Shown one piece after another: positions 4,589 to 27,950 of a stretch of 58,395 nt of DNA (its first letter is position 1; the number at the start of each line of letters is the position of its first letter). The DNA is from a virus. Lineage: Duplodnaviria; Caudoviricetes. Below the pieces are notes generated by a model. It was not told the origin of the DNA, searched no databases, and saw nothing but the letters and a program-made list of their open reading frames with translations. Where the stretch lies: the IMG/VR virus record IMGVR_UViG_3300022896_000001, positions 1 to 58,395 of that record; one strand, written 5' to 3'. The translations under genes and the position numbers were made by a program.

Positions 4589-4912
4589 TCACCGCCGACC
4601 GGCAGGAACCTCACGCTCCTCATCCTCAAGCGGGCGCAGCGGAAGGGTCCTGGCCAGCAGCCACAGCAGTGCGTAGACGACCACCTCGACACTGGCGATC
4701 AACTGCGCCGCGCGGAACCCCGCGATGACGTGGAACCCGCCGATGAACCCCAACGCGACCAACCAGTACTTGAACCGCGCCACGGCCTCGGCGAAGCGCA
4801 GGTGCCGGGTCGTGGCCAACGTGCCGACCAGCAACAGCAACGCGAGACCCCACGCCGCCATCGTCAGCAGCGACGTGTCCAGGTCCGGGAACGGGCGCAG
4901 GTCTAAGTCCAT
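4589..4912 (-). CDS. Small membrane protein, last gene of the transfer operon
   Basis: About three hydrophobic helices. Confidence 0.7.
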   Translation of the reverse strand: MDLDLRPFPDLDTSLLTMAAWGLALLLLVGTLATTRHLRFAEAVARFKYWLVALGFIGGFHVIAGFRAAQLIASVEVVVYALLWLLARTLPLRPLEDEEREVPAGRR

Positions 4913-4949
4913 ACCCGCGAGGGTCCCTCCACCGCCGGCGGGTCGTCAA

Positions 4950-5041
4950 CCTCACCTCACCCCTCACCTCACCCCGCCACCCTGTCCCCCACCAGCAGAT
5001 ACGGGGGAGGGGGTGGGTGAGGTGAGGTCCGTGAGGTGAGG
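4950..5041. repeat. GTGAGGTGAGG repeats (2 inverted + 2 direct), candidate clt/TraB recognition sites
   Basis: CCTCACCTCAC at 4950 and 4962; GTGAGGTGAGG at 5017 and 5031. Confidence 0.7.
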
Positions 5042-7120
5042 CAGCTCGTACACCCCGATCGTCGGGTTCGCCAACCTCCCGGACAGCTTGAGGTCCGCGA
5101 GCACGTTGTTCAGCACGCCCTCGGTCGGCTCGGCGCCCGAGGCCGTCAGCCCGGCGCGGATGTCCTTGCGGCGCATCCGCCCACCGGCGTCGGTCACGAG
5201 CTGGACGATGCGGTCGCCCCACGTCAGGTCCGGTACCACCGCCTCGACGACAGGCGCGGGCAGCTCGGTCACCGGCGGCGCGGCCGGGAGCGCCTTGGGC
5301 TGAGGCATCACCTGCGCCAGGAACGCGTCCGCCTCGGCCGCGACCTCCGCCGCCTCGTCCCGCACCACCGGTGCGGGCTGACCGACACCGCGCAGGTAGT
5401 CGCGGTGCGCCGCGGTCATCCGCTGCGGGCGGTCCGCGTAGAACGCGCCCGCCGCGCGCGCCGACCCGGTATCCAGCGGGCGGCGCTGACCAGCACGAAC
5501 CCGCGCGATCTCCCGGACCGTGGGCCCGTCGTGCAGGCGCGGCTTCGCCGGGTCGGACTCCTGCGGGTAGAACAGCTTCGCGTGCACCGGGTCCCGGTGA
5601 TCCTGCACGTAGGCCTCGCCGGGGTTGTACAGGTTGGGCAGCCCGTAGAAGCGGTCGCCGAACGCTCGCCGCCGTTCGTCGCCGCTGGAGGACCGGCACA
5701 GCACGGTGACGCCCACGTTGTTCTTGATGCTGGCGGCCTCTTTGCCGAACATCTCGTGGTCGTAGTCCTGCGCCGACCACACCCAGTACACCTGCGCCGA
5801 CAGCGTCGAGCGGGCGCCGTGCCCGGTCAGCTCGGACGCGGTGTACTTGCGGCCCTCCCAGGTGATCTGCCTCGTCGTGTCCATGAGCACCCGCGGGGAC
5901 TCGGTCATCACGATCCACAAGGGGGTGAGGTCACCCTTTTGAGCTGCGGAAAGTCCCTGCCGGTAGCGGGCGACGCTCATCGCGGCGGCCATCATCTTCA
6001 GGGTGTCGTCCATGCCCTGCACCGCCCAGATCGGCAGGTCGATGTCCTCGCCGACGAACTGGTCGAGGTGGTCCTCCAGCGTTGCCCACACCTTCTCCGC
6101 GCCGCAGAACCACACCTCGCCACGCGCTTGGCCTTCAGCGACGACGACGTTCTCCAGCCCGGACTTGCCCGAGCCGGTGGGACCGACGATGACCCAGTGC
6201 TGGCGGGGGTTGACCTGCACGTCCTGGGCGCGGATGTCCAGGCCGATGGTCATCTTGTCCGGGTCGCGCGGGGTGGCGTCGAGCGCGGTGTAGGGCTTGG
6301 CCTTGGCCATGACGTCCTCGGTGGTCACGGTGACCACGACCCGCCCGGCGGCGCGCTTGGAGGTGACCTGCACCCAGTCGGTCATCATCTCCACCCCGGT
6401 CAGCGACTGGATCGTGGTCGCGATGACCTCACAGTCTGCGCTGGTCAGCGGGGTGAGGTCCTTCACCTTGAGCTTCGGGAACGGCTTGGACGGGTCGGCG
6501 GCGTGCTCGGCTTTCGCGGCGCGCTCGGCGGCCTGCAACGGGGTGAGCATCTGCAACTCCCACCAGCCGCCGTAGCCGAGCGCGCCGTCGGCGACCTGGT
6601 CGTAGTGGTCCTTGCCGATCTGGCGCAGCACTTCGGTCATCAGTCCGGCCGCGGTCGGCGGGACCTCGGCGTCCACGACGGAGGCCACATGCCGCTCGGG
6701 TACGGCGACCTGGGCGCGGGGCTTCACGTGGGTGACCTGGTAGTCCCACCACGCGGCGAGCACCCACTCCAGCGCCCCGAGCCCGACCAGCAGCCCAGCA
6801 GTCCACTGCCAGGTCCACAGGCCGTGCGGGGCGATCAGCGCCCACAGGGCGTGGGCGGTGGCCGCGGCGGTGGTGGCGCGCGCCATGTTCAGCCGGGAGC
6901 TGTAGCCGATCGCCTCGAACACCATGCCGCCGAGGAACACCGCGCGCGCCCACACAGTGACCCCGACCGCCGCGACCAGCACGACCAGCACGGCGGCCCA
7001 CGTCGGCGCGCCCAGCACGGCGGGCAGCACCGCGACCGCGCCGGTGGCGAGCATCCCCGCCAGCACGCAGACGGTCTTCGTGGAGACCTTCGGCTCGTCG
7101 TCGTCACGTCGCTGGTTCAT
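4964..7120 (-). CDS. traB: TraB-like FtsK/SpoIIIE conjugative DNA translocase
   Basis: N-terminal TM helices, Walker A GPTGSGKS, WIVMTE Walker B-like, PGEAYV motif, C-terminal wHTH (GGRMRRKDIRAGL...LNNVLADLKLSGRLANPTIGVY); GGAG RBS before ATG 7120. Confidence 0.8.
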   Translation of the reverse strand: MNQRRDDDEPKVSTKTVCVLAGMLATGAVAVLPAVLGAPTWAAVLVVLVAAVGVTVWARAVFLGGMVFEAIGYSSRLNMARATTAAATAHALWALIAPHGLWTWQWTAGLLVGLGALEWVLAAWWDYQVTHVKPRAQVAVPERHVASVVDAEVPPTAAGLMTEVLRQIGKDHYDQVADGALGYGGWWELQMLTPLQAAERAAKAEHAADPSKPFPKLKVKDLTPLTSADCEVIATTIQSLTGVEMMTDWVQVTSKRAAGRVVVTVTTEDVMAKAKPYTALDATPRDPDKMTIGLDIRAQDVQVNPRQHWVIVGPTGSGKSGLENVVVAEGQARGEVWFCGAEKVWATLEDHLDQFVGEDIDLPIWAVQGMDDTLKMMAAAMSVARYRQGLSAAQKGDLTPLWIVMTESPRVLMDTTRQITWEGRKYTASELTGHGARSTLSAQVYWVWSAQDYDHEMFGKEAASIKNNVGVTVLCRSSSGDERRRAFGDRFYGLPNLYNPGEAYVQDHRDPVHAKLFYPQESDPAKPRLHDGPTVREIARVRAGQRRPLDTGSARAAGAFYADRPQRMTAAHRDYLRGVGQPAPVVRDEAAEVAAEADAFLAQVMPQPKALPAAPPVTELPAPVVEAVVPDLTWGDRIVQLVTDAGGRMRRKDIRAGLTASGAEPTEGVLNNVLADLKLSGRLANPTIGVYELPHLTDLTSPTPSPVSAGGGQGGGVR

Positions 7121-7143
7121 CGGATACTCCCTGCTCAGACAGG

Positions 7144-7175
7144 TCGGGGGCCCGTACCGCAGCACGGGCCCCCGA
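7144..7175 (-). terminator. Hairpin upstream of traB
   Basis: TCGGGGGCCCGT-N8-ACGGGCCCCCGA. Confidence 0.5.
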
Positions 7176-7192
7176 GGTGGACGGGTGGGTGG

Positions 7193-8860
7193 TCAGTCGG
7201 CTTGCTCGGCGGAGCGGCTGGTGAAGTGCGCCGACAGGAGCCGGTTCTTCTCGGCGTCGCCCTCCAGCGCGGCGGCCTTCGCGTTGAGCTCGGTGACCCG
7301 GTCGGGGAACTTCGCCGCGGCGCGGGCGTCGGCGCGCAGCCGCTCCGCCTCCTGGACGAGGGCGAGGTGGCGGGCGGAGGCGTCGCTGGCGGCCTCGTTG
7401 AGCGCGTTCTTGCGCTCGGCCGCCGTGGACTCCTCGGTGAGGTTCTCGAAGTGGTTCGCGAAGTCGGTGACGGCGACGGTCATGGGGTCTCTCCTGGTCG
7501 TGGTGATGACGTGCGATTCGTGGTGTTCGTGCTGTTCAGGGGGGTGAGGTGAGGCATGAGGTGAGGGGTGAGGTGGAGGTGAGGGCTTGCCCTTGTCGTG
7601 GTCTCTGGGCCAGGCGTAGTCGTCGACCGTGGACTGGCCGGGCCACACGTAGTCGTCGGCGGTCTGGCCGGGCCACCAGTCGGGCATCGGGTCGGTCTCG
7701 CCCTCGTCGATGCCCGTGGTGAACTTCTTCGGCGGGCCGGGCTTGAACGGGGTCCGGAGCGCGTCGGCCACGGCGTGCCCGTCGACGGCGCGGACCTGGT
7801 TGCCGACGAACGTGGCGAACCCGGAGTACGCGCTGCGGGCTCCGCGGCCGACCAAGCGCCACGCGCCGGACGAGTCCGACGACGAGCCGTGGCCCTTGCT
7901 GCCGCCTCCCGACCCTCCCTTGCTCCCGCCCTTGCCCTTGCCGCCGCCGTTGCCTCCGGACTTGCCGCCGCCGCGGGAGCCTCCCGGCGAGCCCTTGCCC
8001 CTCCCGCCCGACGGCCTCCCGCCTCCCGTGCCGGGGCTCCCGAGCCTCCCGCCCGACACCCGGTTCAGCAGGCTCCTGCCGCGCCCGCGGGACGAGGTGC
8101 TCCCGCCTCCCGTGCCACCCTTGCTCCCACCCTTGCCCGGCCCCTTGCCGGGAGCCCTCCCGCCGGACCTCCCGCCCGACCTCCCGGTGGAGCCGTGAGC
8201 CGACCGGGCTCCCGAGACGCCACGCGGGAGGAACCTTCCGAGGCTCCCGCCCGACGACCTCCCGCCCGACCGGGAGCCTCCCGACCGGGCACCGGACCGG
8301 GAGGACAGGAGGCCGCGCGCCTTGCCCAGGAGGCCACCCCGCCGGGAGGCTCCCGGGAGCCCTCCCGCCGTGCGCCTCCCGCCGGGAGCTCCCGCCTTGG
8401 CCGGGAACCTCCCGCCCGTGAGGCTGCGAAGCCGGGAGGCGAACCTCCCGTTGCGGGCGCGCGCCAGCCCGGACCTCCCGCGGCCTCCCGCCGACCGCAG
8501 CGCACGGCCGAGGCGGGTCCCGCCCAGCGCGCGGCCGAGCCGACCCGCGCCCGCCCGACGCCCGCCACGGCCGCGGGCCAGCTGCCAGCCCAGCGCCCCC
8601 AGCCCGGCCAGCAGCACCAAGCCGCCGAGGATCAAGCCGAGGGAAGGGCTGGCCAGCGACGACACCACCACCGCGGCAACCACAAGCAGCGGCACGCCGA
8701 GCCGGAGCAGCGCGGTGGCCAGCGGGACACCGGTGGTGCCGAACGTCGGCAGACCCTCCGGCTCGTCGACCGGCGACGCGGGTGCAGCGGCTGGCGAGGT
8801 CGGTGCGGGCCGAGGGCTCAGGGTGAGCGGGGGCCGCGGCGGCGGGGTCGGGGTGCTCAT
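7193..8860 (-). CDS. Spd-like membrane protein with Gly/Arg-rich linker and C-terminal coiled coil (internal start 7483)
   Basis: Two N-terminal TM helices, low-complexity centre; AGGAGAG RBS before in-frame ATG 7483. Confidence 0.7.
   Translation of the reverse strand: MSTPTPPPRPPLTLSPRPAPTSPAAAPASPVDEPEGLPTFGTTGVPLATALLRLGVPLLVVAAVVVSSLASPSLGLILGGLVLLAGLGALGWQLARGRGGRRAGAGRLGRALGGTRLGRALRSAGGRGRSGLARARNGRFASRLRSLTGGRFPAKAGAPGGRRTAGGLPGASRRGGLLGKARGLLSSRSGARSGGSRSGGRSSGGSLGRFLPRGVSGARSAHGSTGRSGGRSGGRAPGKGPGKGGSKGGTGGGSTSSRGRGRSLLNRVSGGRLGSPGTGGGRPSGGRGKGSPGGSRGGGKSGGNGGGKGKGGSKGGSGGGSKGHGSSSDSSGAWRLVGRGARSAYSGFATFVGNQVRAVDGHAVADALRTPFKPGPPKKFTTGIDEGETDPMPDWWPGQTADDYVWPGQSTVDDYAWPRDHDKGKPSPPPHPSPHASPHPPEQHEHHESHVITTTRRDPMTVAVTDFANHFENLTEESTAAERKNALNEAASDASARHLALVQEAERLRADARAAAKFPDRVTELNAKAAALEGDAEKNRLLSAHFTSRSAEQAD
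7544..7584 (+). repeat. Second cluster of (G)TGAGGTGAGG repeats
   Basis: Copies at 7544 and 7557, degenerate copy at 7568-7584. Confidence 0.7.
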
Positions 8861-9275
8861 CCGGTCTGCTCCCGGTGCTCCTGCTCGGCGGCCTCGACGA
8901 ACTTCTTCGCCCGGGACGCCCCGATCCCGAGAGCCTTCTTCACGCGGTCGGCGGTCGGGAGCTCCCGGTGCTCCTGCTCCCAGGAAGCGATGAACTCCCG
9001 GATGTCCTCGTCGGAGCGGGAGGCCCTCATCGGGAGCACCTGGTGCTCCCGCCCCAGGGAGGCTCCCGGCTCTGCGGCAGCCTCCCGGTCGGGCTCCCGC
9101 TCGGCGGGCGGGAGCACCACGGGAGCTCCCGGCGGGAGCACGACGGCGGGAGCTTCGGGAGCCTCCTGCTTGCCGGGAGCCGGGACGCGGGCCATCACGG
9201 TCGAAGCGGGAGCCTGCTGCTCCACGGCGGGCGGGAGCACCTCCTCCTGCTCCGGGACGGCGGGAGCCTCCCGGA
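7905..9275. repeat. Dense CGGGAG(C)/(G)CTCCCG motif arrays in both orientations across two genes
   Basis: Many copies, including palindromic GGGAGCTCCC (about 8384, 8957, 9121). Confidence 0.7.
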
Positions 9276-9735
9276 CCGGCTCATCGTCCGCGCGGAGCAT
9301 GTGCAGCAAGGCCGCGGTCATCCCGACGATCGCGATCGGCAGGCACGCCACCCCGACCACGATCTGCCACGGCGCCACGCGCTGCCCGAACGTCTCCAAG
9401 AGGTGGTACGCCACCTGGCCCAGCGCGCCGAGCACGAGGGCGGTGATCCCGGAGACCATCGCGAACGTGCGGGTGCGGTCCGACATCGGCCGGGACGACA
9501 GCCACACCCCGAGCGCGTAGGCCGCGTAGGCCTCGATCCCGAGCGGGAGGGTGATCGCGGAGTTGATGACGAACTCGTCGGCGATGCCGGGCAGGAGCTT
9601 GACGGGGCCGAACCCGGCCTTCTCGCCGAGGCCGACCCACCCGGACCAGGTCGCGACGAACGCGGGCGCGGCGATGGCGATGAGCGGCCAGCGTCGGGCT
9701 CGCCCGTCAGCGGGGGTGGGCTTGGATCCGAACAT
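8857..9735 (-). CDS. SpdB2/DUF2637-like membrane protein with C-terminal HTH
   Basis: About four TM helices (AFVATWSGWVGLG, LPLGIEAYAAYALGVW); C-term PTADRVKKALGIGASRAKKF; GGAG RBS before ATG 9735. Confidence 0.75.
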   Translation of the reverse strand: MFGSKPTPADGRARRWPLIAIAAPAFVATWSGWVGLGEKAGFGPVKLLPGIADEFVINSAITLPLGIEAYAAYALGVWLSSRPMSDRTRTFAMVSGITALVLGALGQVAYHLLETFGQRVAPWQIVVGVACLPIAIVGMTAALLHMLRADDEPVREAPAVPEQEEVLPPAVEQQAPASTVMARVPAPGKQEAPEAPAVVLPPGAPVVLPPAEREPDREAAAEPGASLGREHQVLPMRASRSDEDIREFIASWEQEHRELPTADRVKKALGIGASRAKKFVEAAEQEHREQTG

Positions 9736-9758
9736 GGTGAAGGTCTCCCAGTGGTGGG

Positions 9759-10253
9759 TCAGAGGAGGCGGGCGAGGTCGCGGCCAGACACGAAGCCGTC
9801 CTCCAGCAGAGCTGCGGCCATCGCCTCGACCGCACCCCACTGCTCGACGAGCAGGTCGTAGCTCCAGGCGTAGGCCGCGTCGACGGTCAACGCGGTGAGA
9901 CGGACCAGGTCGCGGACCTTGCCCGCGTCGGAGGGGTTGTCGTACACGGCGGCCCGGCGTCGGGACTTGAAGCTGCCCCCGCAGACCGCGGCGGTCCACA
10001 GCGCTTCGGCGTCGATCCCGGCCGCGGCGATGAGCTGGTCGTCGGTGTCGTCGTAGTCCTTGGCGTCGACGAACCCTTCGACGGACCACGAGGTGAAGAA
10101 GAAGCCGGAGCGGACGGTGGTGATGCTGGCGCTGACGACGGGCAGCTCTCGTGCGAACGCGGCGAGGGCGTGCCCGGCCTCGTGGTGGGCTGCGCGTTCG
10201 CGTTGCAGTTGGAGTTGCTGCTGTTTGCCTGAGGTGAGCACGCCCGGGAGCAT
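9759..10253 (-). CDS. Stand-alone M41/FtsH-like zinc peptidase domain protein
   Basis: AAHHEAGHAL HExxH motif; downstream AAG..AE and SD motifs; ..AALLEDGFVSG end. Confidence 0.7.
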   Translation of the reverse strand: MLPGVLTSGKQQQLQLQRERAAHHEAGHALAAFARELPVVSASITTVRSGFFFTSWSVEGFVDAKDYDDTDDQLIAAAGIDAEALWTAAVCGGSFKSRRRAAVYDNPSDAGKVRDLVRLTALTVDAAYAWSYDLLVEQWGAVEAMAAALLEDGFVSGRDLARLL

Positions 10254-10340
10254 GGCGGGACCTTCCAGTTGGAGACGACTTGGTGAGGGCCCGGTCGGGG
10301 CGGGGTCTTCTTGGCGGACGGCGCCCGCCCCGACCGGGGG

Positions 10341-10607
10341 CTAGAGGGTGGAGGCGTCCGCGGCGGCGAGCAGCAGACCCGTCTCGGCGAGGCCGCGGTA
10401 CGTCCCGGCGAGCTCGGTCAGGATCGACACGCGGGCCTGGATCCGCGACTCGTTTGCGTAGAGGCCTTGGGCTTCGATGGCGGCGTGGCGGGCCAGGGTG
10501 ACCGCGGCTGCCTGGTTCTCTTCCGGGTTGGTCGGGGGCTGGTCGGCGAGGCTCTTGAGGTAGGCGCTGACGTGGCCGAGGGGGCGACTGGTGTGGGTGG
10601 TGTTCAT
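10341..10607 (-). CDS. Hypothetical protein
   Basis: GAAGGA RBS, ATGA coupling. Confidence 0.65.
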   Translation of the reverse strand: MNTTHTSRPLGHVSAYLKSLADQPPTNPEENQAAAVTLARHAAIEAQGLYANESRIQARVSILTELAGTYRGLAETGLLLAAADASTL

Positions 10608-10756
10608 TCCTTCGGTCCCAGCGTCTTGGCGACGGCGATCATCAGGGCGGGGTCCTCCTTGAAGGCGTCGAGGACCAGGTCGTTGAGGCGCTGGATGCGC
10701 CGGGAGAGATTGGCCACGGCCACGGCCACGGGGTCGGGTTGCTTGTCGGCGCTCAC
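10604..10756 (-). CDS. Hypothetical protein
   Basis: GGAG RBS + GTG 10756. Confidence 0.55.
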   Translation of the reverse strand: MSADKQPDPVAVAVANLSRRIQRLNDLVLDAFKEDPALMIAVAKTLGPKE

Positions 10757-10790
10757 GGTGTTCTCCGGTTCTGTGCGGGTGTCCTGAAGG

Positions 10791-10976
10791 TCAGTCCAGG
10801 ACGGTGACGGGGTGGTCCGGGGTGGCGGTGTAGTCGCCGCCGGTGGTGATGACGAGGAGGTCGCCATCCAGGTAGGGGGAGTCGCCGACGAGCAGGACGT
10901 GGGCGGTGTTGCCGCCGTCGGGGTTGATGATGCTGTCCCCTGCGTTGAGGTCTGCGGCGGTCTTGGTGCTGGTCAC
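10791..10976 (-). CDS. Hypothetical protein, first gene of the transfer operon
   Basis: AGGAG RBS + GTG. Confidence 0.65.
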   Translation of the reverse strand: MTSTKTAADLNAGDSIINPDGGNTAHVLLVGDSPYLDGDLLVITTGGDYTATPDHPVTVLD

Positions 10977-11024
10977 GGGTGCTCCTGCGTGGTTGACGGG
11001 TTGCGGTGTGTGCCCGGGCTAGGA

Positions 11025-11050
11025 TTGCAGACTTAGCTGTGCGCCTGCAA
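11025..11050. promoter_or_regulatory. Divergent promoter region with inverted repeat TTGCAG-N14-CTGCAA, candidate GntR operator
   Basis: Lies between the divergent tra operon and the gntR gene. Confidence 0.4.
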
Positions 11051-11083
11051 GTATGGTGCCACGAGTTGACCCGAAGGATGGCG

Positions 11084-11902
11084 ATGACCCAACCGGCCGA
11101 CGACCTCACCGCACACCTGCGGGAGCAGATCACCACTGGTGAGCTCGCTCCAGGGGACCGCCTGCCCACCGTCAAAGCCGCCCAAGACCTCTGGCGTGTC
11201 GGCGAGTCCGTCGTCCGGACCGCCTACCGCACACTGGCCGCCGAGGGCCTGGTCCGCGGGTCGCACGGCCGCGGCACGGTCGTGCTCGGCCCCGCGCTGA
11301 TCCGCATCGCCCGGCACCGGGCGATGTTCCGGGACCGGCTCGGCTACTACTTCGACCCCGAGGGCCAAGACCTGCGGCTAGTCGGGAAGCCCACCGTCGA
11401 GGTACTGCCCGCGTCCCCGGACATCGCACTCCGCCTGCAAGTGCCGCCAGGGTCGCCGGTGGTGGTGCGGGATCGGGTGCTCGGCAGGCCGGGCACGAAA
11501 CGGACCCGGCCGACGCCTCTGCAAATCGCAACCAGCTACCTGCCCGGCTGGCTCCACGCAGTGCTCCCGATCATCGGCGAGCCGATCACTGGGCCAGGTG
11601 GGATCTACGACCGGATCGAGGAGCACTTCGGGCGGCCGTTGGCGGATCCGGTGGAGGCGCAGGGGGCGGTGTCCGCGACGGCCGCCGAGGCGAAGCGACT
11701 GAACGTCCCGGCTGGGGCGGCACTGGTCCGGATCGCGCGGACGACCGCGCTGGAGGACGGGCGGCCGGTCGAGGTGAACGACACCCGCATGGACGGTGCC
11801 CGGTTCGAGACGGTGATCGTGCTGGCACGCGACGAGTCGGCAGGGTGGCCGCCGGACCCAGCTGTGGAATCACCCGTAGCACCAAGCGAGGAGAACGACT
11901 GA
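11084..11902 (+). CDS. GntR/HutC (UTRA) regulator, KorSA/TraR-like
   Basis: LREQITTGELAPGDRLPT...VRTAYRTLAAEGLV...GRGTVV; UTRA PLQIATSYLP, GPGGIY, DGRPVEV. Confidence 0.92.
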   Translation: MTQPADDLTAHLREQITTGELAPGDRLPTVKAAQDLWRVGESVVRTAYRTLAAEGLVRGSHGRGTVVLGPALIRIARHRAMFRDRLGYYFDPEGQDLRLVGKPTVEVLPASPDIALRLQVPPGSPVVVRDRVLGRPGTKRTRPTPLQIATSYLPGWLHAVLPIIGEPITGPGGIYDRIEEHFGRPLADPVEAQGAVSATAAEAKRLNVPAGAALVRIARTTALEDGRPVEVNDTRMDGARFETVIVLARDESAGWPPDPAVESPVAPSEEND

Positions 11903-14734: not shown

Positions 14735-14868
14735 CTCGTTCCCGGAGCCTGGCGGTAACCGGGGACGTGCCCGGCAGGGGAAACGCAGGGGAAGCAGACC
14801 CCTGCCGGGCCCATCTTGGGATGCCACCTGCGGAAACGCCGCACCCGGAGGTACCGGGGGGAACGCTC

Positions 14869-15285
14869 ATGCCCCCACGTATCGACGACGGCCGACGCGC
14901 CGCGATCATCGCCGACATCCAGGCAGGCTCGAAGTCAGCCCGCCAGATCGCGAAGGACCACGGGGTCAGCGCCAGCCTCGTCAGCAAAATCGCAGGTGAC
15001 GAGCATGTGCACGGTGCGTTTGAACGTGCACAGACCAAAAAGGCGCGCGAGGCGCTCACAGAGGACAGCAAGGCGATCAGGGCGCAGCTGGCGGCCCGAA
15101 GCCTGACCGACGCTGACATCCTGCGGCAGCGGGCGCTCAAGTCGGAGAGTGCCCGCGACGCCAGGGACTACGCCACGGCGTTCGCGATCTTCGTCGACAA
15201 GCACCTCGTGCTCGACGCCCACGACTCCGACACCCACGGCCTGTCCGACGTCGATGCCTGGCTGGATCACCTCACCGGCGACTGA
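14869..15285 (+). CDS. terS: Terminase small subunit
   Basis: N-terminal HTH (SARQIAKDHGVSASLVSKI); directly upstream of terL. Confidence 0.75.
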   Translation: MPPRIDDGRRAAIIADIQAGSKSARQIAKDHGVSASLVSKIAGDEHVHGAFERAQTKKAREALTEDSKAIRAQLAARSLTDADILRQRALKSESARDARDYATAFAIFVDKHLVLDAHDSDTHGLSDVDAWLDHLTGD

Positions 15286-15299
15286 CCGGGGAGGGTGCG

Positions 15300-16571
15300 A
15301 TGCCGACGCAGCCGCTCGGAGGGAAGGCCCGCGAGTCGGTCCGGCAGGCCACAGCGCGCGGGAACTTGTGGGAGGGCGCGGTCCGGTCGTCGAAGACCGT
15401 GTCGTCGATCGTGCGGTGGCTGAAGTACGTGCGGAACGGGCCGCCAGGCGCGCTGCTGATGGTCGGGAAGACCGAGCGGACGCTGAAGCGGAACATCATC
15501 GACCCGATCCAGGCCATGGTCGGGGTGAAGCGGTGCCGGTTCAAGGTCGGCGTCGGCGAGCTGGAGTTGTTCGGCCGGACGATCTACGTGGTTGGCGCGA
15601 ACGACGAGCGGTCCAGCGACAAGATCAAGGGCCTGACGCTGTCCGGGGCGTACTGCGACGAGCTCACCACCTACCCCGAGTCGTTCTTCTCGATGCTCAC
15701 CACCCGCCTCTCCGTGCCGGGCGCGCAGTGGTTCGCGACAACGAACCCCGAGGGCCCTGGCCACTGGGTGAAGAAGAAGTACGTCGACCGCGCGAAGCTC
15801 CGCATCACCCGCGACGGCCAGATCGTCCGCTCCGACGACCCGACGGCGCTGGACCTGCACACCTTCGCGTTCCAGCTCGCCGACAACCCCACCCTGCCCG
15901 CGGCGTACGTCGAGGAGCTGAAGCGGGAATACGTCGGCCTGTTCTACCGGCGGTACGTGCTCGGCGAGTGGTGCCTGGCCGAGGGCGTTGTCTACGACAT
16001 GTGGGACCCCGACAAGCACGTGGTCACCACAGCCCAGATGCCCGCGATCAGCAGGCACATCGCGCTCGGCATCGACTACGGCACGGTCAACCCGTTCGCC
16101 GGGCTACTGCTCGGGTTGGGCGCTGACCAGCGGCTGTACCTGACCAACGAGTACCGGTACGACTCGAAGGCTCAGCGGCGGTCGTTGACGGACGCGGAGT
16201 ACTCGCGGGAGCTGACCCTGTGGCTGGACAAGCTCCAGGTGTTCCCCGAGTGGACAGCGGTCGACCCCAGCGCGGCGTCGTTCGTGCAGCAGCTCTACCG
16301 CGACGGCCGGGTCACCCCGACCCTCGCGAACAACTCCGTGATCGACGGCATCCGGCAGCTGTCGTCCCTGCTCGCGACCGACCGGCTTCGGGTGCACGAC
16401 TCGTGCAAGGGGTGGATCGAGGAGATCCCCGGCTACTCGTGGGACCCGAAGAAGGCACTTCGAGGCGAAGACGCGCCGATCAAGGTCGGCGACCACTCGC
16501 TCGACGCGGGCCGGTACGCGGTCCACACCACCGAAGCCATCTGGCATGGCCAACTCAAGGAGGCAGCGTGA
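15300..16571 (+). CDS. terL: Terminase large subunit (PBSX-type)
   Basis: GAVRSSKT Walker A, AYCDE Walker B, TTNP, GIDYG, VDPSA, DHSLDAGRY nuclease motifs. Confidence 0.97.
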   Translation: MPTQPLGGKARESVRQATARGNLWEGAVRSSKTVSSIVRWLKYVRNGPPGALLMVGKTERTLKRNIIDPIQAMVGVKRCRFKVGVGELELFGRTIYVVGANDERSSDKIKGLTLSGAYCDELTTYPESFFSMLTTRLSVPGAQWFATTNPEGPGHWVKKKYVDRAKLRITRDGQIVRSDDPTALDLHTFAFQLADNPTLPAAYVEELKREYVGLFYRRYVLGEWCLAEGVVYDMWDPDKHVVTTAQMPAISRHIALGIDYGTVNPFAGLLLGLGADQRLYLTNEYRYDSKAQRRSLTDAEYSRELTLWLDKLQVFPEWTAVDPSAASFVQQLYRDGRVTPTLANNSVIDGIRQLSSLLATDRLRVHDSCKGWIEEIPGYSWDPKKALRGEDAPIKVGDHSLDAGRYAVHTTEAIWHGQLKEAA

Positions 16572-16744
16572 CCCCGCAGGAAGCAGCCGCGAAGGCAGCA
16601 GAGGTGCTGGCCAAGGCCGAAACGGACATCGACCGCGGCAACGGGCCCGCTCGGGCGCACGCGCTCCGATGCGTCGCTGACGGCTGGACGCAGCTCGCCG
16701 TAGTGCTCGCGACGCACCCGAGCACGGTCGGGAAAGCCAGCTGA
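16568..16744 (+). CDS. Hypothetical protein
   Basis: AAGGAGG RBS, GTGA overlap. Confidence 0.65.
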   Translation: MTPQEAAAKAAEVLAKAETDIDRGNGPARAHALRCVADGWTQLAVVLATHPSTVGKAS

Positions 16745-16971
16745 TGGCCCCGCTGCCCGCGCGGATCACCCGCCGCAAGGTGCTCGAAGCACTCGACGTC
16801 CTCGGCATCCCGCACACCGACGTGTGCGTGGTCGAGTTGGGCCTGCACGAGGTCACGGTGCGGGAGCTGATGAAGCCCGAGACCAAGGCCGAGGGCGACA
16901 AGGTGCGCGTCGAGCGGGTCACGGTCATCCCGACCGGCGTGCTGCGAGTCTCGCGAGGCGACATTGCCTAA
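16744..16971 (+). CDS. Hypothetical protein
   Basis: TGATG coupling. Confidence 0.6.
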   Translation: MAPLPARITRRKVLEALDVLGIPHTDVCVVELGLHEVTVRELMKPETKAEGDKVRVERVTVIPTGVLRVSRGDIA

Positions 16972-17182
16972 GCGCCAGCGGTTCGCCACCCGCGACGAGC
17001 TGGCCGAGCTGGTCCGGCAGTACCTCGTCGAGCACTGCGACGGCGCCTACGCCGCCGACACGGTCACGGACGACGTGCTGAACGCGCTCGACCACCTCGG
17101 CGTGCCGATCGAAGCCCTCGTCAAGATCACCGTCACCGAGCCCACCCCCAAGGTGGAGTTCCGTGAGCCGCGAAGGGAGTAG
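16964..17182 (+). CDS. Hypothetical protein
   Basis: GAGG RBS, overlap chain. Confidence 0.55.
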   Translation: MPKRQRFATRDELAELVRQYLVEHCDGAYAADTVTDDVLNALDHLGVPIEALVKITVTEPTPKVEFREPRRE

Positions 17183-17184
17183 TT

Positions 17185-18786
17185 GTGCCGCTCCCCACCG
17201 GAGGCGATACCCAGTGGCCGCCGAAGGCCCTGGACGAGGTGTTCAGCACGGTCGACGTGTGGGACGCCTGGTACTCCGGGGGCCCGGACAAGCTCGCTGA
17301 GGTCTACGGCGACGGCTCCAGCGGCGGGTTCGACTCGGTCAGCCGCGCCAGGCTCCGCAACCGGCCCGCGCAGTTCAGCGGCGGCGTGAAGGGCCGGGTG
17401 GCTAGGTGGTTCTGGGGCGCGCCGACCCTGGCCGGTGAGCCGCGGACCAAGCTCCACATCCCGCTGGCCTCGGACATCGCCGCCAAGAGCGCGAAGCTCC
17501 TGTTCGCCGAGCCTCCGACGTTCAAGGTCGAGGACGCCGCCACACAGAAGGTGCTGGACGACGTCGTCGAGCAGGCGCTGCACGCCCGCCTGCTCGAAGC
17601 CGCTGACGCGTGCGCCGGGCTCGGCGGGGTGTACCTGCGGCTGGTGTGGGACACAGAGATCAGCCCGCTGCCGTGGCCGCAGGTCGTCCACGCCGACGCC
17701 GCAGTGCCGGAGTGGCGCGGTGGCAGGCTCAAGGCGGTCACGTTCTGGCGGATCGTCGACCAGACCGACAGCCAGGTGTGGCGGCACCTGGAGCGGCACG
17801 AGGCCGGACGGATCCTGCACGGCCTCTACGAGGGCACGCACGACCACCTCGGTCGGAAGATCCCGCTCACCGAGCAGGAAGCCACCGCAGACCTAGTCGA
17901 CCAGCTCACCGACGGCGACGAGATCCTCACCGGCGTCGACAAGGCCACCGCCTGGTACGTCCCGAACATCCGACCCAACCGGCTGTGGCGCACCAACCCT
18001 GCCGCCGCCGAGCTCGGCCGCGCGGACATCTCCGGCGCCGAGGGAGCGCTCGATAAGCTCGACGAGACGTGGACCAGTTGGATGCGGGACATCCGGCTCG
18101 CGAAGGGCCGTGTGTTCGTCGCCGAGTCCTACCTGCGCACCACCGGGCCGGGCCAGGGCGCGTACTTCGACGCTGACCAGGAGATCTACGCGTCGCTGAA
18201 CATGCTGCCGCAGGCTGGCAACAACGCGCCGATCACGCTCAACCAGTTCGCGATCCGCGTCGAGGAGCACGCCCGCACGGCTGAGGAGCTGACCAAGGTC
18301 ATCCTCCGCTCGGCGGGGTACAGCGCCCAGACGTTCGGCATGAGTGGCGATGTCGCCATCACGGCCACCGAGGTCACCGCCAAGGAGCGCGACAGCTTCC
18401 TGACCCGGTCGCACAAGCTCCTGTACTGGAACCCGGTGCTGGCCGACCTGCTGGAAACCCTGCTCGCGGTGTACGCCGGGCCCGTGCTCAAGGGCAAGGT
18501 CACCCCGGAGCGTCCACAGATCGAGTGGCCGGACGGCGTGGCCACCGACCCGGAGCAGCAGGCCCGCACCATCCAACTGCTTGACGCCGCCGGTTCCGTG
18601 TCGACCGAGACGAAGGTCCGGATGCTGCACCCGGACTGGGAGGACAAGCAGGTCGACGAAGAGGTCGAGGCGATCAAGGGCCCCCCGCTGGAGGACCCAG
18701 GGTCGTTCACCGGCGGGCCACCGATCAACGTCAAGGGCCCGCAGCCCCCAGGCGACACCCCACCTGGCGAGGAGCCGCCACCGTGA
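17185..18786 (+). CDS. Portal protein (SPP1/A118-like)
   Basis: 533 aa after terL; LHIPLASDIA..SA.LLF.EPP, LDETWTSWMRDIRLAK, IRVEEH, GYSAQTFG. Confidence 0.93.
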   Translation: MPLPTGGDTQWPPKALDEVFSTVDVWDAWYSGGPDKLAEVYGDGSSGGFDSVSRARLRNRPAQFSGGVKGRVARWFWGAPTLAGEPRTKLHIPLASDIAAKSAKLLFAEPPTFKVEDAATQKVLDDVVEQALHARLLEAADACAGLGGVYLRLVWDTEISPLPWPQVVHADAAVPEWRGGRLKAVTFWRIVDQTDSQVWRHLERHEAGRILHGLYEGTHDHLGRKIPLTEQEATADLVDQLTDGDEILTGVDKATAWYVPNIRPNRLWRTNPAAAELGRADISGAEGALDKLDETWTSWMRDIRLAKGRVFVAESYLRTTGPGQGAYFDADQEIYASLNMLPQAGNNAPITLNQFAIRVEEHARTAEELTKVILRSAGYSAQTFGMSGDVAITATEVTAKERDSFLTRSHKLLYWNPVLADLLETLLAVYAGPVLKGKVTPERPQIEWPDGVATDPEQQARTIQLLDAAGSVSTETKVRMLHPDWEDKQVDEEVEAIKGPPLEDPGSFTGGPPINVKGPQPPGDTPPGEEPPP

Positions 18787-19049
18787 CCGGCATGGACCAC
18801 AGCCTCAGGGACGTCACCGTCCCGGATTTGATCGACACCCTCCGCGACGCCGAGGACCACCTCGACGTTGTCCAGCCCGGAGCCCTCCGCGAACCGCTTT
18901 CCCTGTGGTTCCTTGCCACCCTGGAGCAGGCCAAGCGTGAGCGCTGGACACAGCTGATGGGCAAGCCCGTCGTGGCTGTCTGGAACGCCGCCCGCGCCGT
19001 GCTCGACCAAACCGATGAGGTGCAGGGCCAGGTGGACGTCGGGGGGTAA
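18783..19049 (+). CDS. Hypothetical protein
   Basis: GTGA overlap. Confidence 0.55.
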   Translation: MTGMDHSLRDVTVPDLIDTLRDAEDHLDVVQPGALREPLSLWFLATLEQAKRERWTQLMGKPVVAVWNAARAVLDQTDEVQGQVDVGG

Positions 19050-19054
19050 ACCCC

Positions 19055-20608
19055 ATGCCGGTCGATCGCACCCTCGGCTCCGAACTCGCGGACACCGTCA
19101 CAGCCCTGTACGCCGAGGCTGAGCTGGTGCTGACGAAGCAGATCGCGAAGCAGGTCGGCACCGGGCTGGGCTCTCCGGACTGGGCAGAGCAGCGGCTCGC
19201 CAGGGTCGGGGAGATGCGGCGCATCGCCGAGCGGATCACCGCGCGCCTGGCCGCCGACACGACCGGCAAGGTGGCCGAAGCGGTCGCGACGGCGTACCAG
19301 CGCGGCGGCGAGAACGCCCTCTCTGAGGTGGCGAAGCTCAGCGGCGCTCGCCCCGGCGCGGCTGCGGCCATCCGGGGCGAGCTGACCGGGTCAGCCGCGG
19401 TACAGCGACTCGTGACCGCTCTGGTCACACGGCTCGGCGGCACGCACCTGAAGATCGTCCGCGAGACCGTCGACACGTACCGGCAGGTCATCTCCAGCAC
19501 CGTCGCCTCAGGCACCCTGCAAGGGACCGAGACGCGGCGCGAGGCGGCGCAGCGGGCGATGAAGAAGTTCGCCGCCGAGGGCATCACGGGGTTCGAGGAC
19601 AAGTCGGGCCGCCAGTGGCAGCTCTCCTCGTACGTGGAGATGGCCACCCGGACCGGTACGGCGCAGGCTGCGGTGGAAGGGCACCTCGACCGGCTCGAAG
19701 GCCTCGACATCGACTTGGTGATCGTCAGCAACGCTCCGCAGGAGTGCAAGCGGTGCCGCCCGTGGGAGGGGAAGGTTCTCGCTCGCCGCGGGCCGCATGG
19801 CCGGCGCACGGTGGAGGTCGAGCACTCGACCATCGATGACCTGATGATCGAGGTCGAGATCGCGGGCACTGTCGACGAGGCTGTGGCTGACGGGTTCATG
19901 CACCCGAACTGCCGCCACTCCCTGTCGGCGTACCTGCCGGGTGTCACCAAGCCGATCACGAACACCGAGGACCCCGACGGCGACAAGGCCCGGCAGAAGC
20001 AGCGCCTGCTGGAGCGCAACATCCGGGCCGCGAAGATGGACGAGGCCGCTGCCCTCGGCCCGGAGCAGGCAGCCGAGGCCCGCGTCGCGATCAAGGCGGC
20101 GAACAAGCGGCTCCTACAGCACCTCGACGAGAACCCGTCGCTGAAGCGCCTGAAGTACCGGGAGCAGATCGGCGCGGGCAACCTGCCCACCAAGGGCACC
20201 TCCGACGCGGGCGTACGTGGCCCGCTGGAGGCCGCGCCCAAGTCGAAGCCCGCGGCCGCACCGAAGGCAGCGTCCAAGCCAGCACCGGCCAAGCCGAAGC
20301 CTGCGACCGCCGCGAAGCCCGCGGCCCCGGTCAAGCCGCCAGCACCCAAGCCCCCAGCGGCGAAGAAGCCTGCCGCGGTCGCGCCGAAGCCTCAGGCTCC
20401 GAAGCCTGTGCAGCCAGAGCGGCTCGCCGACGCGCTCGCCATGGGCCGCTCCAAACCCGCCGACCTCACCGTCAACGAGTTGCACGCAGCCGACAGGGAG
20501 TTCGCGAGGCGGGCTGCTGAATTGGGCAAGTCCGACAAGGTCGGACGCACCCACAGGAAAATCAAGAACGAGCTGCTTCGCCGTGCCAAGGAGGCGATGG
20601 GGTTCTAG
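19055..20608 (+). CDS. Phage minor capsid protein with Lys/Ala/Pro-rich tail
   Basis: GRQWQLSSYVEMATRT, CKRCRPWEGKV, HPNCRH, QKQRLLERNIR. Confidence 0.9.
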   Translation: MPVDRTLGSELADTVTALYAEAELVLTKQIAKQVGTGLGSPDWAEQRLARVGEMRRIAERITARLAADTTGKVAEAVATAYQRGGENALSEVAKLSGARPGAAAAIRGELTGSAAVQRLVTALVTRLGGTHLKIVRETVDTYRQVISSTVASGTLQGTETRREAAQRAMKKFAAEGITGFEDKSGRQWQLSSYVEMATRTGTAQAAVEGHLDRLEGLDIDLVIVSNAPQECKRCRPWEGKVLARRGPHGRRTVEVEHSTIDDLMIEVEIAGTVDEAVADGFMHPNCRHSLSAYLPGVTKPITNTEDPDGDKARQKQRLLERNIRAAKMDEAAALGPEQAAEARVAIKAANKRLLQHLDENPSLKRLKYREQIGAGNLPTKGTSDAGVRGPLEAAPKSKPAAAPKAASKPAPAKPKPATAAKPAAPVKPPAPKPPAAKKPAAVAPKPQAPKPVQPERLADALAMGRSKPADLTVNELHAADREFARRAAELGKSDKVGRTHRKIKNELLRRAKEAMGF

Positions 20609-20627
20609 GCCCAGGCCAGGGCCGGGC

Positions 20628-20676
20628 GGCTGGCGTGCCACCCGACGAACTCGGAGCGTCGGGTGGCACGCCAGCC
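20628..20676. terminator. Perfect 20-bp hairpin between convergent genes
   Basis: GGCTGGCGTGCCACCCGACG-N9-CGTCGGGTGGCACGCCAGCC. Confidence 0.75.
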
Positions 20677-20692
20677 AGGGGCTTCGGCGTAG

Positions 20693-21133
20693 CTAGCCGA
20701 CCAGCTTCGCCAACTCCTGCTCATACCTCGGCCGGTCCTCGGCTGGGGTCCTTGCCGCCGTGTAGGACAGCACGACCATGCCGCGCTGGTGGGTCTCACC
20801 GTTCGCCGTGTACTTCGCCGCGGCGGCCGTGTCGTCGAACGTCAGCACAGTCACCGCGTCCGTGGTGACCATCTCTCGGCACCCCAGCGTCGGGCAGTTC
20901 TTGCTGTTGTCCCGCGGCGACGGCGCCGGTAACCCGGCCGCGGCGAACGCGTCCACCACCTGCTGTGCGGACACGGCCGCCGCCGCGGCAGGCGCTGCCG
21001 ACGACACCGGCGCTGCCGCCGAGACCTCCGAACTGCCTCCCGGCGTCAGCCGGTCGACCTTGTCGCTGATCCCGGCACAGCCCGAGACCAGCACGAGCAC
21101 TCCTATGACTACCGCTCCGATTGCTCTGTTCAC
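20693..21133 (-). CDS. Lipoprotein moron
   Basis: Signal peptide with lipobox LVSGC; antisense within the head operon. Confidence 0.8.
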   Translation of the reverse strand: MNRAIGAVVIGVLVLVSGCAGISDKVDRLTPGGSSEVSAAAPVSSAAPAAAAAVSAQQVVDAFAAAGLPAPSPRDNSKNCPTLGCREMVTTDAVTVLTFDDTAAAAKYTANGETHQRGMVVLSYTAARTPAEDRPRYEQELAKLVG

Positions 21134-21210
21134 GCCTGGCTATCGGAGCGGCAGAACTCACCGCTACACCCCCGGCCGGTTGACCCGGCCTCGCCGCCCC
21201 AGGAGGGCAC

Positions 21211-22005
21211 ATGCACGCCAAGATCGGGACGACTGACTCGTCCACCCTGCCCATTCACCCCACCACCGGGCTCCGCGCGCTCGCCATCGGCCGCCGTGGC
21301 CCCGTGTGGCCTGTCCTCGGCGGCAACGGGGAGGGCGACGGCAACACCGGCGACATCCCGGCGGACGACACCGGCGACGACGCGGACACCACGGGCGACC
21401 AAGGCACTGGCGGGACGGACTCCGGCCAGGACAAGGGCACCCAGAAGGACACGGACGCGGCCAAGGCGGAAGCCAAGGAGGTCAAGGACCTCCCGTCGTG
21501 GGCCCAGAAGATCGTCCGCGAGTCGCGCAAGCAGGCCGCTGACGAGCGCGGGAAGGTCGCGGCAGCCGAGAAGGCGCGCCAGGACACGCTCGACAGCATC
21601 GCGGTTGCTCTCGGCCTGAAGAAGGGCGACGAGGTCGACCCGAAGAAGCTCGCCGACCAGCTCACCGCAGAACGCGATAAGGCCGCCACCGCCGCGGCCA
21701 GCGCCCAGCAGGAGCTGGCGATCTACCGGGCCGCCGACAAGCACGGCGCCGACCCGAACGCACTGACCGACTCGCGCGAGTTCCTCAAGGCCGTCAGTGA
21801 GCTTGACGCCACCGACAAGGACTACGCGAAGGACCTCGCGGAGCTGATCAAGCAGCGCGTGAAGGACAACCCGACTCGGTACGCCCGCGAGGCCCCGAAG
21901 ACGAAGAAGTCGGGCAGCGCGGACGACATGAACGGCGGCAAGGGCAGCGGCGGCCCCCGCCCCACCTCGCTACACGCAGCGCTCGAAGCGCGCAACAAGA
22001 CCTGA
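21211..22005 (+). CDS. Capsid scaffolding protein
   Basis: Acidic N-term, LPSWAQK, coiled coil, LTDSREF; precedes capsid. Confidence 0.85.
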   Translation: MHAKIGTTDSSTLPIHPTTGLRALAIGRRGPVWPVLGGNGEGDGNTGDIPADDTGDDADTTGDQGTGGTDSGQDKGTQKDTDAAKAEAKEVKDLPSWAQKIVRESRKQAADERGKVAAAEKARQDTLDSIAVALGLKKGDEVDPKKLADQLTAERDKAATAAASAQQELAIYRAADKHGADPNALTDSREFLKAVSELDATDKDYAKDLAELIKQRVKDNPTRYAREAPKTKKSGSADDMNGGKGSGGPRPTSLHAALEARNKT

Positions 22006-22024
22006 CCGATAGAAGAGAGGCAGC

Positions 22025-23092: not shown

Positions 23093-23094
23093 CC

Positions 23095-24074: not shown

Positions 24075-24149
24075 TCCCGCTCACCGCGTAGGGCCCGGCC
24101 GGACTACTCCCCGGTCGGGCCCTACGCGCTGCCCCTGGAAGGACCAGAT

Positions 24150-24762: not shown

Positions 24763-24771
24763 GAGGCGGCG

Positions 24772-25233: not shown

Positions 25234-25245
25234 TCGGGGGTCTCG

Positions 25246-26157: not shown

Positions 26158-26167
26158 AGGGGGCCGC

Positions 26168-26845: not shown

Positions 26846-26854
26846 GGAGGCGCT

Positions 26855-27935: not shown

Positions 27936-27950
27936 GAGAGGGACATCCCC

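Follow-up and report, generated by a model that had tools for sequence, protein, structure and literature searches.

The concept of a plasmid-phage equipped with a transfer module has been known since pZL12 (2010). This element, deposited as 'Streptomyces phage ZL12' (GQ919031; plasmid-phage pZL12/phiZL12), has a module composed of the membrane protein 73c, 72c, the 725-amino-acid (aa) protein 71c, annotated as 'similar to cell division FtsK/SpoIIIE', the small genes 74c-79c and the divergent GntR gene 80. The abstract on pZL12 by Zhong and colleagues (J Bacteriol, 2010) reportedly names a traA-traC locus. In pIJ101, korA, which encodes a GntR regulator, is divergent from tra, spdA, spdB and kilB. 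The integrative and conjugative elements of actinomycetes (AICEs), among them pSAM2, SLP1 and pMEA300, range in size from about 9 to 24 kb. For elements of this kind, sizes of 10.9, 13.3 and 17.3 kb are given in the accessible part of PMC2440964. Here we analysed the single contig of virus record IMGVR_UViG_3300022896_000001 (Duplodnaviria; Caudoviricetes), whose whole stretch of 58,395 nucleotides (nt) is referred to as the window, and in particular a leftward operon with a divergent GntR/UTRA gene at 4589-11902, which lies between early genes and packaging genes (Table 1). The window holds a complete circular genome, that of a temperate siphophage whose host is a high-GC actinomycete, and we hold with high confidence that it is a genuine phage genome with a Tra-type module. 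The 718-aa product of the operon is, as judged from its sequence, a divergent member of the Tra/TraB-type membrane translocases.

Concerning the translocase, structure prediction and profile comparisons pointed to the same build. In the AlphaFold2 (AF2) model, four N-terminal helices (residues 14-36, 40-64, 73-99 and 104-130), in agreement with hydrophobic segments, indicate a membrane anchor, followed by an alpha/beta core and a C-terminal helical bundle with three helices at 634-680 (pLDDT 63-76). The best Foldseek match was the FtsK motor of E. coli (2ius; E 2.4e-10, prob 1.00), ahead of the conjugative coupling protein TcpA (6o1x) and EccC/EssC. Among PDB sequences, a profile of 52 translocase family members (A2) matched EccC (1.1e-11) and Pseudomonas FtsK (1.8e-8), and its last ~100 positions (589-694) matched the RPA32 winged helix (E ~4e-4). 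Alignment of A2 by hhalign gave a probability of 98.15% with pZL12.71c (E 6.6e-14, 426 columns, motor and C-terminal domain) and 92.1% with the experimentally defined pIJ101 Tra (E 6.3e-7, 186 columns, motor only). A local hidden Markov model (HMM), made from 82 full-length members, recovered pZL12.71c (2.9e-14) and the homologue on the NBC_01483 plasmid (3.1e-15) among 1539 open reading frames (ORFs); it gave no match to pIJ101 Tra at E<=1. The Walker A residues (G318, K319) and E407 are invariant across the 52 family members, the motor being of the FtsK/SpoIIIE type with Walker A and B, and Walker B reads Asp-Glu in the wider family consensus. As neither FtsK_gamma nor FtsK_SpoIIIE (PF01580) was matched in the protein with Pfam, it is not a chromosomal FtsK. 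The transmembrane (TM), FtsK-motor and winged-helix architecture put forward by the sequence-only reading, as well as its preference for TraB over chromosomal FtsK, therefore agree with the AF2, Foldseek, A2 and hhalign results.

A word-indexed search returned nine proteins including that of the window, five of them 81-89% identical and from metagenome contigs and three 45-48% identical, one of the latter (48%) from Saccharothrix xinjiangensis. In an exhaustive profile search with the translocase, the cluster representatives recovered numbered 179 at E<=1e-3, of which 93 reached E<=1e-30; most were 650-800 aa long. When 59 relatives were scanned with Pfam, FtsK_SpoIIIE was touched at E<=0.001 by 12, in four of them above the 24-bit cut-off, and PadR and AbiEi_4 were also matched. 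Scans with another profile (A1) confirmed none of 83 pattern matches in viral contigs and found one short locus (L008) in metagenome contigs; the scan of genome contigs gave one locus, that of Saccharothrix. Direct searches of Pfam, PHROGs and NCBIfam with the translocase returned a weak P-loop (ABC_tran) match only, and phmmer against PDB returned SufC only (E 0.4); neither was accepted as an assignment.

The surroundings of the translocase gene resemble those of pZL12.71c. All genes of the leftward operon and the divergent GntR/UTRA gene that had been proposed from the sequence were found in place, and the module of pZL12 shows the same gene order, the divergent GntR gene included. The GntR protein of the window is 34% identical to pZL12.80 (phmmer E 6.9e-29) and matches KorA of pIJ101 (4.9e-11) in a set of 33 sequences; by its position it is taken as Kor/TraR-like. 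Searches of a plasmid collection with the portal led to Streptomyces plasmids of 88-93 kb, such as the 88-kb NZ_CP109440 (NBC_01483), which carries virion genes, ParA, an integrase and a leftward operon of small genes, a DUF2637 protein and proteins of 614 and 725 aa, with a divergent GntR gene. Relatives of pZL12.71c are present in 34 actinomycete plasmid records, many of them annotated as DNA translocase FtsK. PhiNon1 has been described as 'reminiscent of pZL12', and no tra is mentioned in the accessible part of that source (PMC5431353). The novelty attributed at first to a phage with a transfer module was overstated, given the same module in the same order on pZL12.

The phage nature of the window is evident from its form and gene content. 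Since the first 127 bases are identical to the last 127 (1-127 = 58269-58395, repeat search), the window represents a circular assembly of 58,268 bp, and the expected prophage between junctions gives way to a circular contig of a virus record. The family scans of window ORFs covered 70 with Pfam, 43 and a further set with PHROGs and 19 with NCBIfam. Pfam and PHROGs matched a full siphophage set, in line with the claim that head, tail, lysis and integration genes are intact. The portal matched 163 phage records by tblastn, all below 60% identity and best in Picard/Mojorita-type Streptomyces phages (46%), and the capsid matched 35 records, best in Micromonospora phage pMLP1 (56%). G+C content is about 0.70 across the window and uniform at about 0.70-0.75 around the module; genes were called by third-position G+C (GC3). 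A tRNA scan and an Rfam search of the window gave no matches, and the sequencing runs listed as holding the sequence include none of RNA. As regards provenance, the probable source run is a leaf-litter metagenome, the contigs of which cover 1-20000 at an even depth of 50-55. One contig of 7,051 bp covers 3263-10313, and another of 29,077 bp starts at 10284 and extends beyond 20000, the end of the stretch compared; the latter therefore joins the small operon genes and the GntR gene to TerL, the portal and the start of the MuF gene.

The link between such a translocase and phage genes recurs in a cultured organism. In Saccharothrix xinjiangensis JCM 12329, a locus with a DUF2637 protein, a 571-aa protein and the 48%-identical translocase was extended to 102 kb, and from its sequence it appears to be a complete-looking integrated prophage of about 70 kb (G001:C5, ~25-100 kb) that ends beside dnaG. 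It encodes TerL (phrog_38, 5e-65), a portal, an HK97-type capsid, a 1297-aa tape measure, minor tail proteins, RecT, YqaJ, an HTH (helix-turn-helix) repressor, a metalloprotease and an integrase (phrog_1, 2.4e-28), beyond which dnaG is located. The order of integrase, early genes, module and virion genes is that of the window, and nine window proteins have homologues in the prophage.

Further relatives occur in isolated phages and on a plasmid-like contig. pZL12.71c matches eight phage records, which represent six phages, namely ZL12, Galactica, Hiyaa, Spocter, Keanu and Thermobifida P1312, and the family HMM matches P1312 ORF63 (2.1e-20) and Hiyaa gp102 (1.1e-16). The annotated FtsK-like translocases of P1312 and Hiyaa, which belong to the same broad family, further reduce the novelty of the window. 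A 44.6-kb contig (G367:C1) carries ParA and a divergent GntR/UTRA gene with a small gene and genes for 646-aa, 546-aa and 764-aa proteins, the last being a translocase (E 3.7e-216); no phage gene was found among the 16 proteins scanned. The same contig contains an exact 11.9-kb direct duplication (1-11890 and 19059-30949) that ends 26 bp past the translocase gene and could be a tandem element or an assembly artefact. In a sample of the class, 16 of 401 genomes matched the translocase family at E<=1e-8, only two of them full-length and strongly; one of the 16 (G015) has a weak partial match.

A candidate transfer site, clt, lies at the 3' end of the translocase gene. An imperfect palindrome has CCTCACC copies in its arms at 4950-4973 (+) and 5016-5041 (-), spans the last 100 nt of the gene together with its stop codon, and has a DNA fold of -39.7 kcal/mol for 125 nt. 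Five further copies are clustered at 7543-7584 within the 555-aa gene. The Saccharothrix locus has CCTCACC at the same two places, and the metagenome locus L008, of which the 3' end is missing, at the upstream place. Retention of the motif there accounts for the oddly conserved, low-confidence C-terminal peptide tail of the translocase. The 3' ends of the translocase genes of G367:C1, pZL12 and the NBC_01483 plasmid differ from that of the window. According to the accessible part of Thoma et al. (2015; PMC4447253), clt regions hold direct 8-bp repeats bound by TraB, and in Streptomyces plasmids clt lies at the 3' end of the translocase gene, as the window repeats do (PMC4447253, PMC3583192, both in their accessible parts). 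We propose the CCTCACC palindrome as a candidate clt. Two other repeat types were considered for this role: clusters of CGGGAGC and CTCCCGCC at 7.9-9.3 kb were set aside because they fall within low-complexity Pro/Gly/Ala coding sequence and were left unchecked in relatives. CGGGAGC/GCTCCCG is dense at 8868-9267 and 7922-8388, with 29 of the 52 copies on the circle within 7.9-9.3 kb; these stand in both orientations and in two frames, where the two membrane-protein genes code for Pro/Ala/Gly-rich stretches.

On the basis of homology and synteny to pZL12, we lean towards the view that the module serves conjugation-type transfer of the phage genome. Relief from repression by GntR, whether in a lysogen or in a hypha that carries the episome, would allow expression of the operon, and the translocase would assemble as a membrane ring. 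Its predicted winged helix may bind the CCTCACC repeats, the candidate clt at the 3' end of its own gene, and the ring would pump the phage circle, as double-stranded DNA, into an adjacent hypha or compartment. The membrane proteins encoded alongside would fill the roles of the plasmid Spd proteins. By analogy, hyphal transfer could take place free of virions, and the phage would have two means of spread, its virions and Tra-type conjugation, as pZL12 is reported to have.

A number of observations weigh against this interpretation. No FtsK_SpoIIIE match to the 718-aa protein was obtained from Pfam, PHROGs or NCBIfam, nor any tblastn match in 72,556 plasmids and 50,697 phage records at E 1e-5, so that homology to Tra proteins rests on profile methods. 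The AF2 model, built on nine sequences, is mediocre (mean pLDDT 61.6), and the Walker B Asp is Thr (T406-E407) in all nine close relatives, down to 45% identity. The 555-, 292- and 107-aa proteins are unmatched to SpdA, SpdB and KilB of pIJ101 (phmmer E<=0.01, 33-sequence set), and the first two have no homology to DUF2637 or pZL12.72c/73c detectable by hhalign and phmmer. CCTCACC is enriched on coding strands window-wide (44 copies against 14.7 +/- 3.7 expected, a number reached in 0 of 100 shuffles), so only its tight clusters carry weight, and the palindrome at 4945-5045 could be a terminator or an attenuator. The source-run Logan contigs break within the module at 10284-10313, where the two sides, of similar depth, share only a 30-bp overlap. 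Finally, P1312 'behaved as a lytic' phage and its authors read ORF63 as a DNA segregation protein, and no word starting with 'conjug' occurs in the text of that paper (PMC4569894).

A different possibility, to which we give an appreciable but clearly minor chance, is that the module acts within one mycelium and moves replicating or episomal phage DNA across hyphal cross-walls, enlarging the infected or lysogenised zone without conjugation to other strains. Such a role would suit the related translocases of isolated phages, including the apparently lytic P1312, and in the accessible part of Thoma et al. (2015; PMC4447253) TraB is stated to take part in intramycelial spreading as well and Spd homologues on actinophages are proposed to help the spread of phage DNA. 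The idea that Spd-type proteins help to spread phage DNA is thus not new. However, transfer loci that act between mycelia have this GntR-divergent layout and the Tra proteins (pZL12.71c, pIJ101 Tra) to which the translocase is homologous, and the same family is found on the ParA-bearing plasmid-like contig. Intramycelial spread and conjugation are not mutually exclusive.

It is also conceivable, although improbable, that the translocase works in the manner of SpoIIIE/FtsK, moving the episomal phage genome through septa as they close, for example at sporulation, so as to clear or segregate it, and thereby replaces the missing ParAB partition system. Unlike in pZL12, no ParA or ParB was found among the scanned window ORFs, the fold is closest to the FtsK motor, the P1312 authors, as noted, proposed segregation, and two further window proteins have FtsK_gamma domains. 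Nevertheless, an integrase gene and a tRNA-like attP candidate are present in the window and its Saccharothrix relative is found integrated; a prophage in that state would already be served by the chromosomal FtsK. Kil-Kor-like GntR control is, moreover, typical of transfer genes. Similarly improbable is a reading of the module as plasmid or AICE cargo that the phage has captured and that is inactive in it or serves for something else, for example superinfection exclusion or defence. Of the 72 window proteins tested, 13 (head, packaging, tape measure protein (TMP), integrase and others) are shared by phage pMLP1, which lacks a family translocase, so the module is accessory; in addition, Thr takes the place of the Walker B Asp. 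Against cargo, every module gene is open and high in GC3, none of the 52 family members departs from Walker A or the catalytic Glu, the Thr variant is kept in all nine close relatives, and a prophage whose translocase is only 48% identical retains the module, its middle gene and the DNA motif included.

A chimera of a phage with a plasmid or AICE fragment is hardly credible: the sequence is a metagenome assembly and source-run contigs break at ~2.3, 3.3 and 10.3 kb, yet depth is even over 1-20000, one contig ties the GntR gene and the operon head to packaging genes, the circle closes, G+C content is uniform, and the linkage of translocase and phage genes recurs in the cultured Saccharothrix genome and in pZL12-type replicons. 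An independent soil metagenome (X2) has pieces ~90-94% alike to the module and to TerL/portal/MuF (depth 8-15); none of these pieces bridges the two, and a chimera at 10.3 kb is considered unlikely.

Regarding the other genes of the module, the 555-aa protein is homologous to the 571-aa protein of the Saccharothrix module (phmmer E 2.8e-29, 33-sequence set); in the same set it did not match pZL12.72c or the 614-aa protein of NBC_01483, and a relationship to these was rejected. The 292-aa protein belongs to a large actinomycete family, with 1839 homologues at E<=0.001 among 7993 scored, and matches one phage record, P1312, with 48.7% identity across the TM part. Its resemblance to the DUF2637 protein of the Saccharothrix locus (E 1e-7) is confined to the last 66 aa at the C-terminus. 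Kinship with DUF2637 or pZL12.73c was likewise rejected, given no DUF2637 (PF10935) match at E<=10, a non-significant hhalign probability of 0.5% with the DUF2637 protein of the NBC_01483 plasmid, and, among 27 relatives scanned, Sigma70_r4_2 HTH matches in five and DUF2637 matches in none. The label 'Spd-like' given to these two membrane proteins consequently reflects position, the comparisons with SpdA/SpdB/KilB and DUF2637 offering no sequence support. The 164-aa protein carrying HEAGH received an Atlas feature score of 0.96 and structure TM values of 0.70-0.77 to M41 domains, and an M41-like protease domain is a lead only. No family was matched in Pfam, PHROGs or NCBIfam by the 107-aa protein or by the three small ORFs at the operon head, of which one of the last two may be mis-called because they overlap. 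Neither reading of the sequence nor the repeat search found a strong or clear operator palindrome in the intergenic region 10977-11077. The hairpin at 4528-4586 is likely a bidirectional terminator that ends the leftward operon.

Table 1. Positions of the module, virion, lysis and integration features in the 58,395-nt window (CDS strand + or -; a dot denotes no strand).
Feature	Position	Strand or context	Basis
Hairpin, 27-nt arms 85% complementary, 5-nt loop	4528..4586	between convergent genes	inverted-repeat search
107-aa small membrane protein, last operon gene	4589..4912	-	GC3 0.90; three hydrophobic segments
Imperfect palindrome, 4 + 3 copies of CCTCACC, over translocase stop codon	4945..5045	.	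candidate clt (proposed)
718-aa TM / FtsK-like motor / predicted winged-helix double-stranded DNA translocase, Tra(TraB)-type	4964..7120	-	AF2, Foldseek, profile, hhalign
555-aa protein with a TM hairpin at the N-terminus, a Gly/Arg/Ser-rich middle and a conserved coiled-coil at the C-terminus	7193..8860	-	translation
292-aa multi-TM protein with C-terminal HTH-like tail	8857..9735	-	translation, relatives
164-aa protein with HEAGH, stand-alone M41 (FtsH protease domain)-like	9759..10253	-	M41 match in Pfam under the cut-off (E 0.0016), a lead only
Three small ORFs (88, 87, 61 aa), operon head	10341..10976	-	GC3 0.92, 0.82, 0.94
Putative divergent promoter/operator region between operon and GntR gene	10977..11077	.	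sequence read
GntR/UTRA (HutC-type) regulator	ORF 11006-11902, likely true start 11078	+	Pfam GntR 1.1e-14, UTRA 3e-19
Virion and lysis genes	14767..39104	+	Pfam, PHROGs, tblastn to annotated phages
TerL	15300-16571	+	Pfam/PHROGs
Portal, SPP1-type	17185-18786	+	Pfam/PHROGs
MuF-like minor capsid	19055-20608	+	Pfam/PHROGs
Scaffold	21211-22005	+	Pfam/PHROGs
Major head	22025-23092	+	phrog_212, E 1.7e-53
Major tail	27951-28403	+	Pfam/PHROGs
Tape measure (TMP)	29080-32154	+	Pfam/PHROGs
Minor tails	32156-36252	+	Pfam/PHROGs
GH25 lysin	37642-38742	+	Pfam/PHROGs
Holin	38739-39104	+	Pfam/PHROGs
tRNA 3'-end-like stretch (T-arm and acceptor 3' strand), candidate attP core	~39327-39365	just downstream of integrase	read by eye
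Tyrosine integrase	39439..40632	-	Pfam Phage_integrase 3.4e-22

Some additional features were noted among the phage genes. FtsK_gamma winged-helix domains are present in a 310-aa protein encoded across the circle origin (58241-58395 continuing 128-905; Pfam E 4.5e-19) and in an 82-aa protein (57334-57582; Pfam E 2.3e-12), and a gene at 47714-48472 matches the N-terminal part of phrog_6152, the PHROG of these two proteins; from their sequences they are probably KOPS-reader-like domains in phage early genes. Two copies, 88% alike, of a 50-nt element that contains a near-perfect palindrome lie upstream of + strand genes (1908-1957 and 2496-2545); the element may be an operator for one of the regulators. 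Paralogy links the genes 1977-2378 and 3046-3333, their repeat at 2174-2389 and 3129-3344 being 216 nt long and 79% alike. A DUF4082 protein is encoded among the head-tail genes (25246-26157; Pfam E 1.1e-20), and, at the edge of the Saccharothrix prophage, a homologous domain forms the end of a protein of 744 aa. The tape measure gene contains a 132-nt tandem repeat (70% alike) at 31353-31616 and related 46-nt copies. Directly upstream of the lysin gene, and slightly overlapping it, ORF 37013-37699 (+) encodes collagen-like Gly-X-Y repeats as well as a TM segment.

Should the module function as it does in pZL12, two routes of spread would be open to a temperate phage whose host is a mycelial bacterium, namely virions and the pumping of double-stranded DNA in the Tra manner. 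This would bear on the movement of prophages through populations of soil actinomycetes in the face of receptor-level resistance, on the exchange of modules between AICEs and phages, and on how 'FtsK-like DNA translocase' genes in deposited actinophage genomes are read. Homologous membrane translocases are found in unrelated virion lineages, namely pMLP1-like (window), HK97-type (Saccharothrix), the pZL12 group, Hiyaa-like and P1312, which would point to a general virion-independent route between hyphae. We tentatively suggest, with less than even confidence, that temperate phages of mycelial actinomycetes carry Tra-type translocase modules as a recurrent trait under selection, beyond the single case of pZL12, and that these modules provide such a route. 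Were this true, the route would be blind to receptor resistance and the line between AICE and prophage would be blurred, integrative and conjugative phages being one outcome. Our search of the literature on phages with TraB-type modules, in which subscription journals were mostly uncovered, brought up citations of pZL12, PhiNon1, the remark of Thoma et al. and the P1312 paper, but no survey treating them as a recurrent phage feature. As the concept itself is not new, the value of the present case lies in the recurrence and in the testable parts: the Saccharothrix xinjiangensis JCM 12329 prophage offers a cultured system, and the conserved CCTCACC palindrome is a concrete candidate binding site.

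Among isolated phages, Thermobifida phage P1312 (KT021004), a 60-kb actinophage, resembles the window in its 680-aa FtsK-like ORF63, a member of the family, and in that a gene adjoining ORF63 (ORF62-64) encodes the TM domain related to the 292-aa protein. It differs in its gene order (064, FtsK-like 063, 062), in having no GntR annotated nearby and in its serine recombinase. Hiyaa (gp102), Galactica, Keanu and Spocter are isolated Streptomyces phages with a ~700-aa 'FtsK-like DNA translocase' that matches the family HMM, and portals of the group are 43-45% identical to that of the window. Unlike the window, they measure 81-83 kb and have no GntR or matching membrane-protein trio annotated beside the putative translocase. 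Micromonospora phage pMLP1 (CP058906) is the closest isolated relative of the virion module, with identities of 56% for the capsid, 50% for TerL, 45% for the portal, 43% for MuF, 32% for the TMP and 26% for the integrase, but it is 43 kb long and yields no HMM match to the translocase family at E<=10.

With regard to the plasmid systems, the Tra/TraB proteins of pIJ101 and pSVH1 share with the window protein the membrane-anchored FtsK-like motor and the C-terminal DNA-recognition domain, which in the window is predicted, and both types of locus have a divergent GntR gene (TraR/KorA in the plasmids) in a Kil-Kor-like layout. In pIJ101, tra comes first after the divergent promoter, whereas the window translocase gene is next to last; moreover, SpdA, SpdB and KilB lack detectable homologues in the module, and the window translocase lacks a PF01580 match. 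Like the AICEs (PMC2440964, accessible part), the window has a tyrosine integrase, a tRNA-type site, here a candidate recognised by eye, a single FtsK-like Tra, a GntR regulator and a circular form. AICEs, however, carry RepSA, RepAM or Prim-pol and no virion genes, whereas the window has ~24 kb of virion and lysis genes, and none of these replication proteins was hit in the scanned ORFs; several early proteins have no family, and a novel replication initiator may be among them. Since no AICE replication gene was found in these scans, the window fails a defining AICE feature, and on this count the name 'AICE hybrid' used in the sequence-only reading fails too. On the other hand, the scans gave no second integrase or ParA, and of the 51 repeat families the 20 largest include none with direct copies on either side of the module, which agrees with the earlier statement that the module has no integrase, replication gene or att repeats of its own and is not a separately inserted AICE. 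Overall, a complete temperate siphophage with a putatively GntR-controlled operon and a remote Tra homologue on one circular molecule stands from that reading, but its AICE and Spd labels are not supported by the sequence.

Finally, compared with pZL12, which is 90 kb long and has ParA/ParB and plasmid maintenance functions, the window is 58 kb, its scanned ORFs gave no ParA, ParB or Rep family hits, and it has a tyrosine integrase with a tRNA-like attP candidate. The structural genes have only two tail proteins in common (27-29%), the two accessory membrane proteins show no detectable homology, and no BLAST link exists between the translocases. Nonetheless, the translocases are homologous by hhalign (98%), the GntR proteins are related, and both elements unite head, tail and integrase/recombinase genes with a transfer locus on one replicon.

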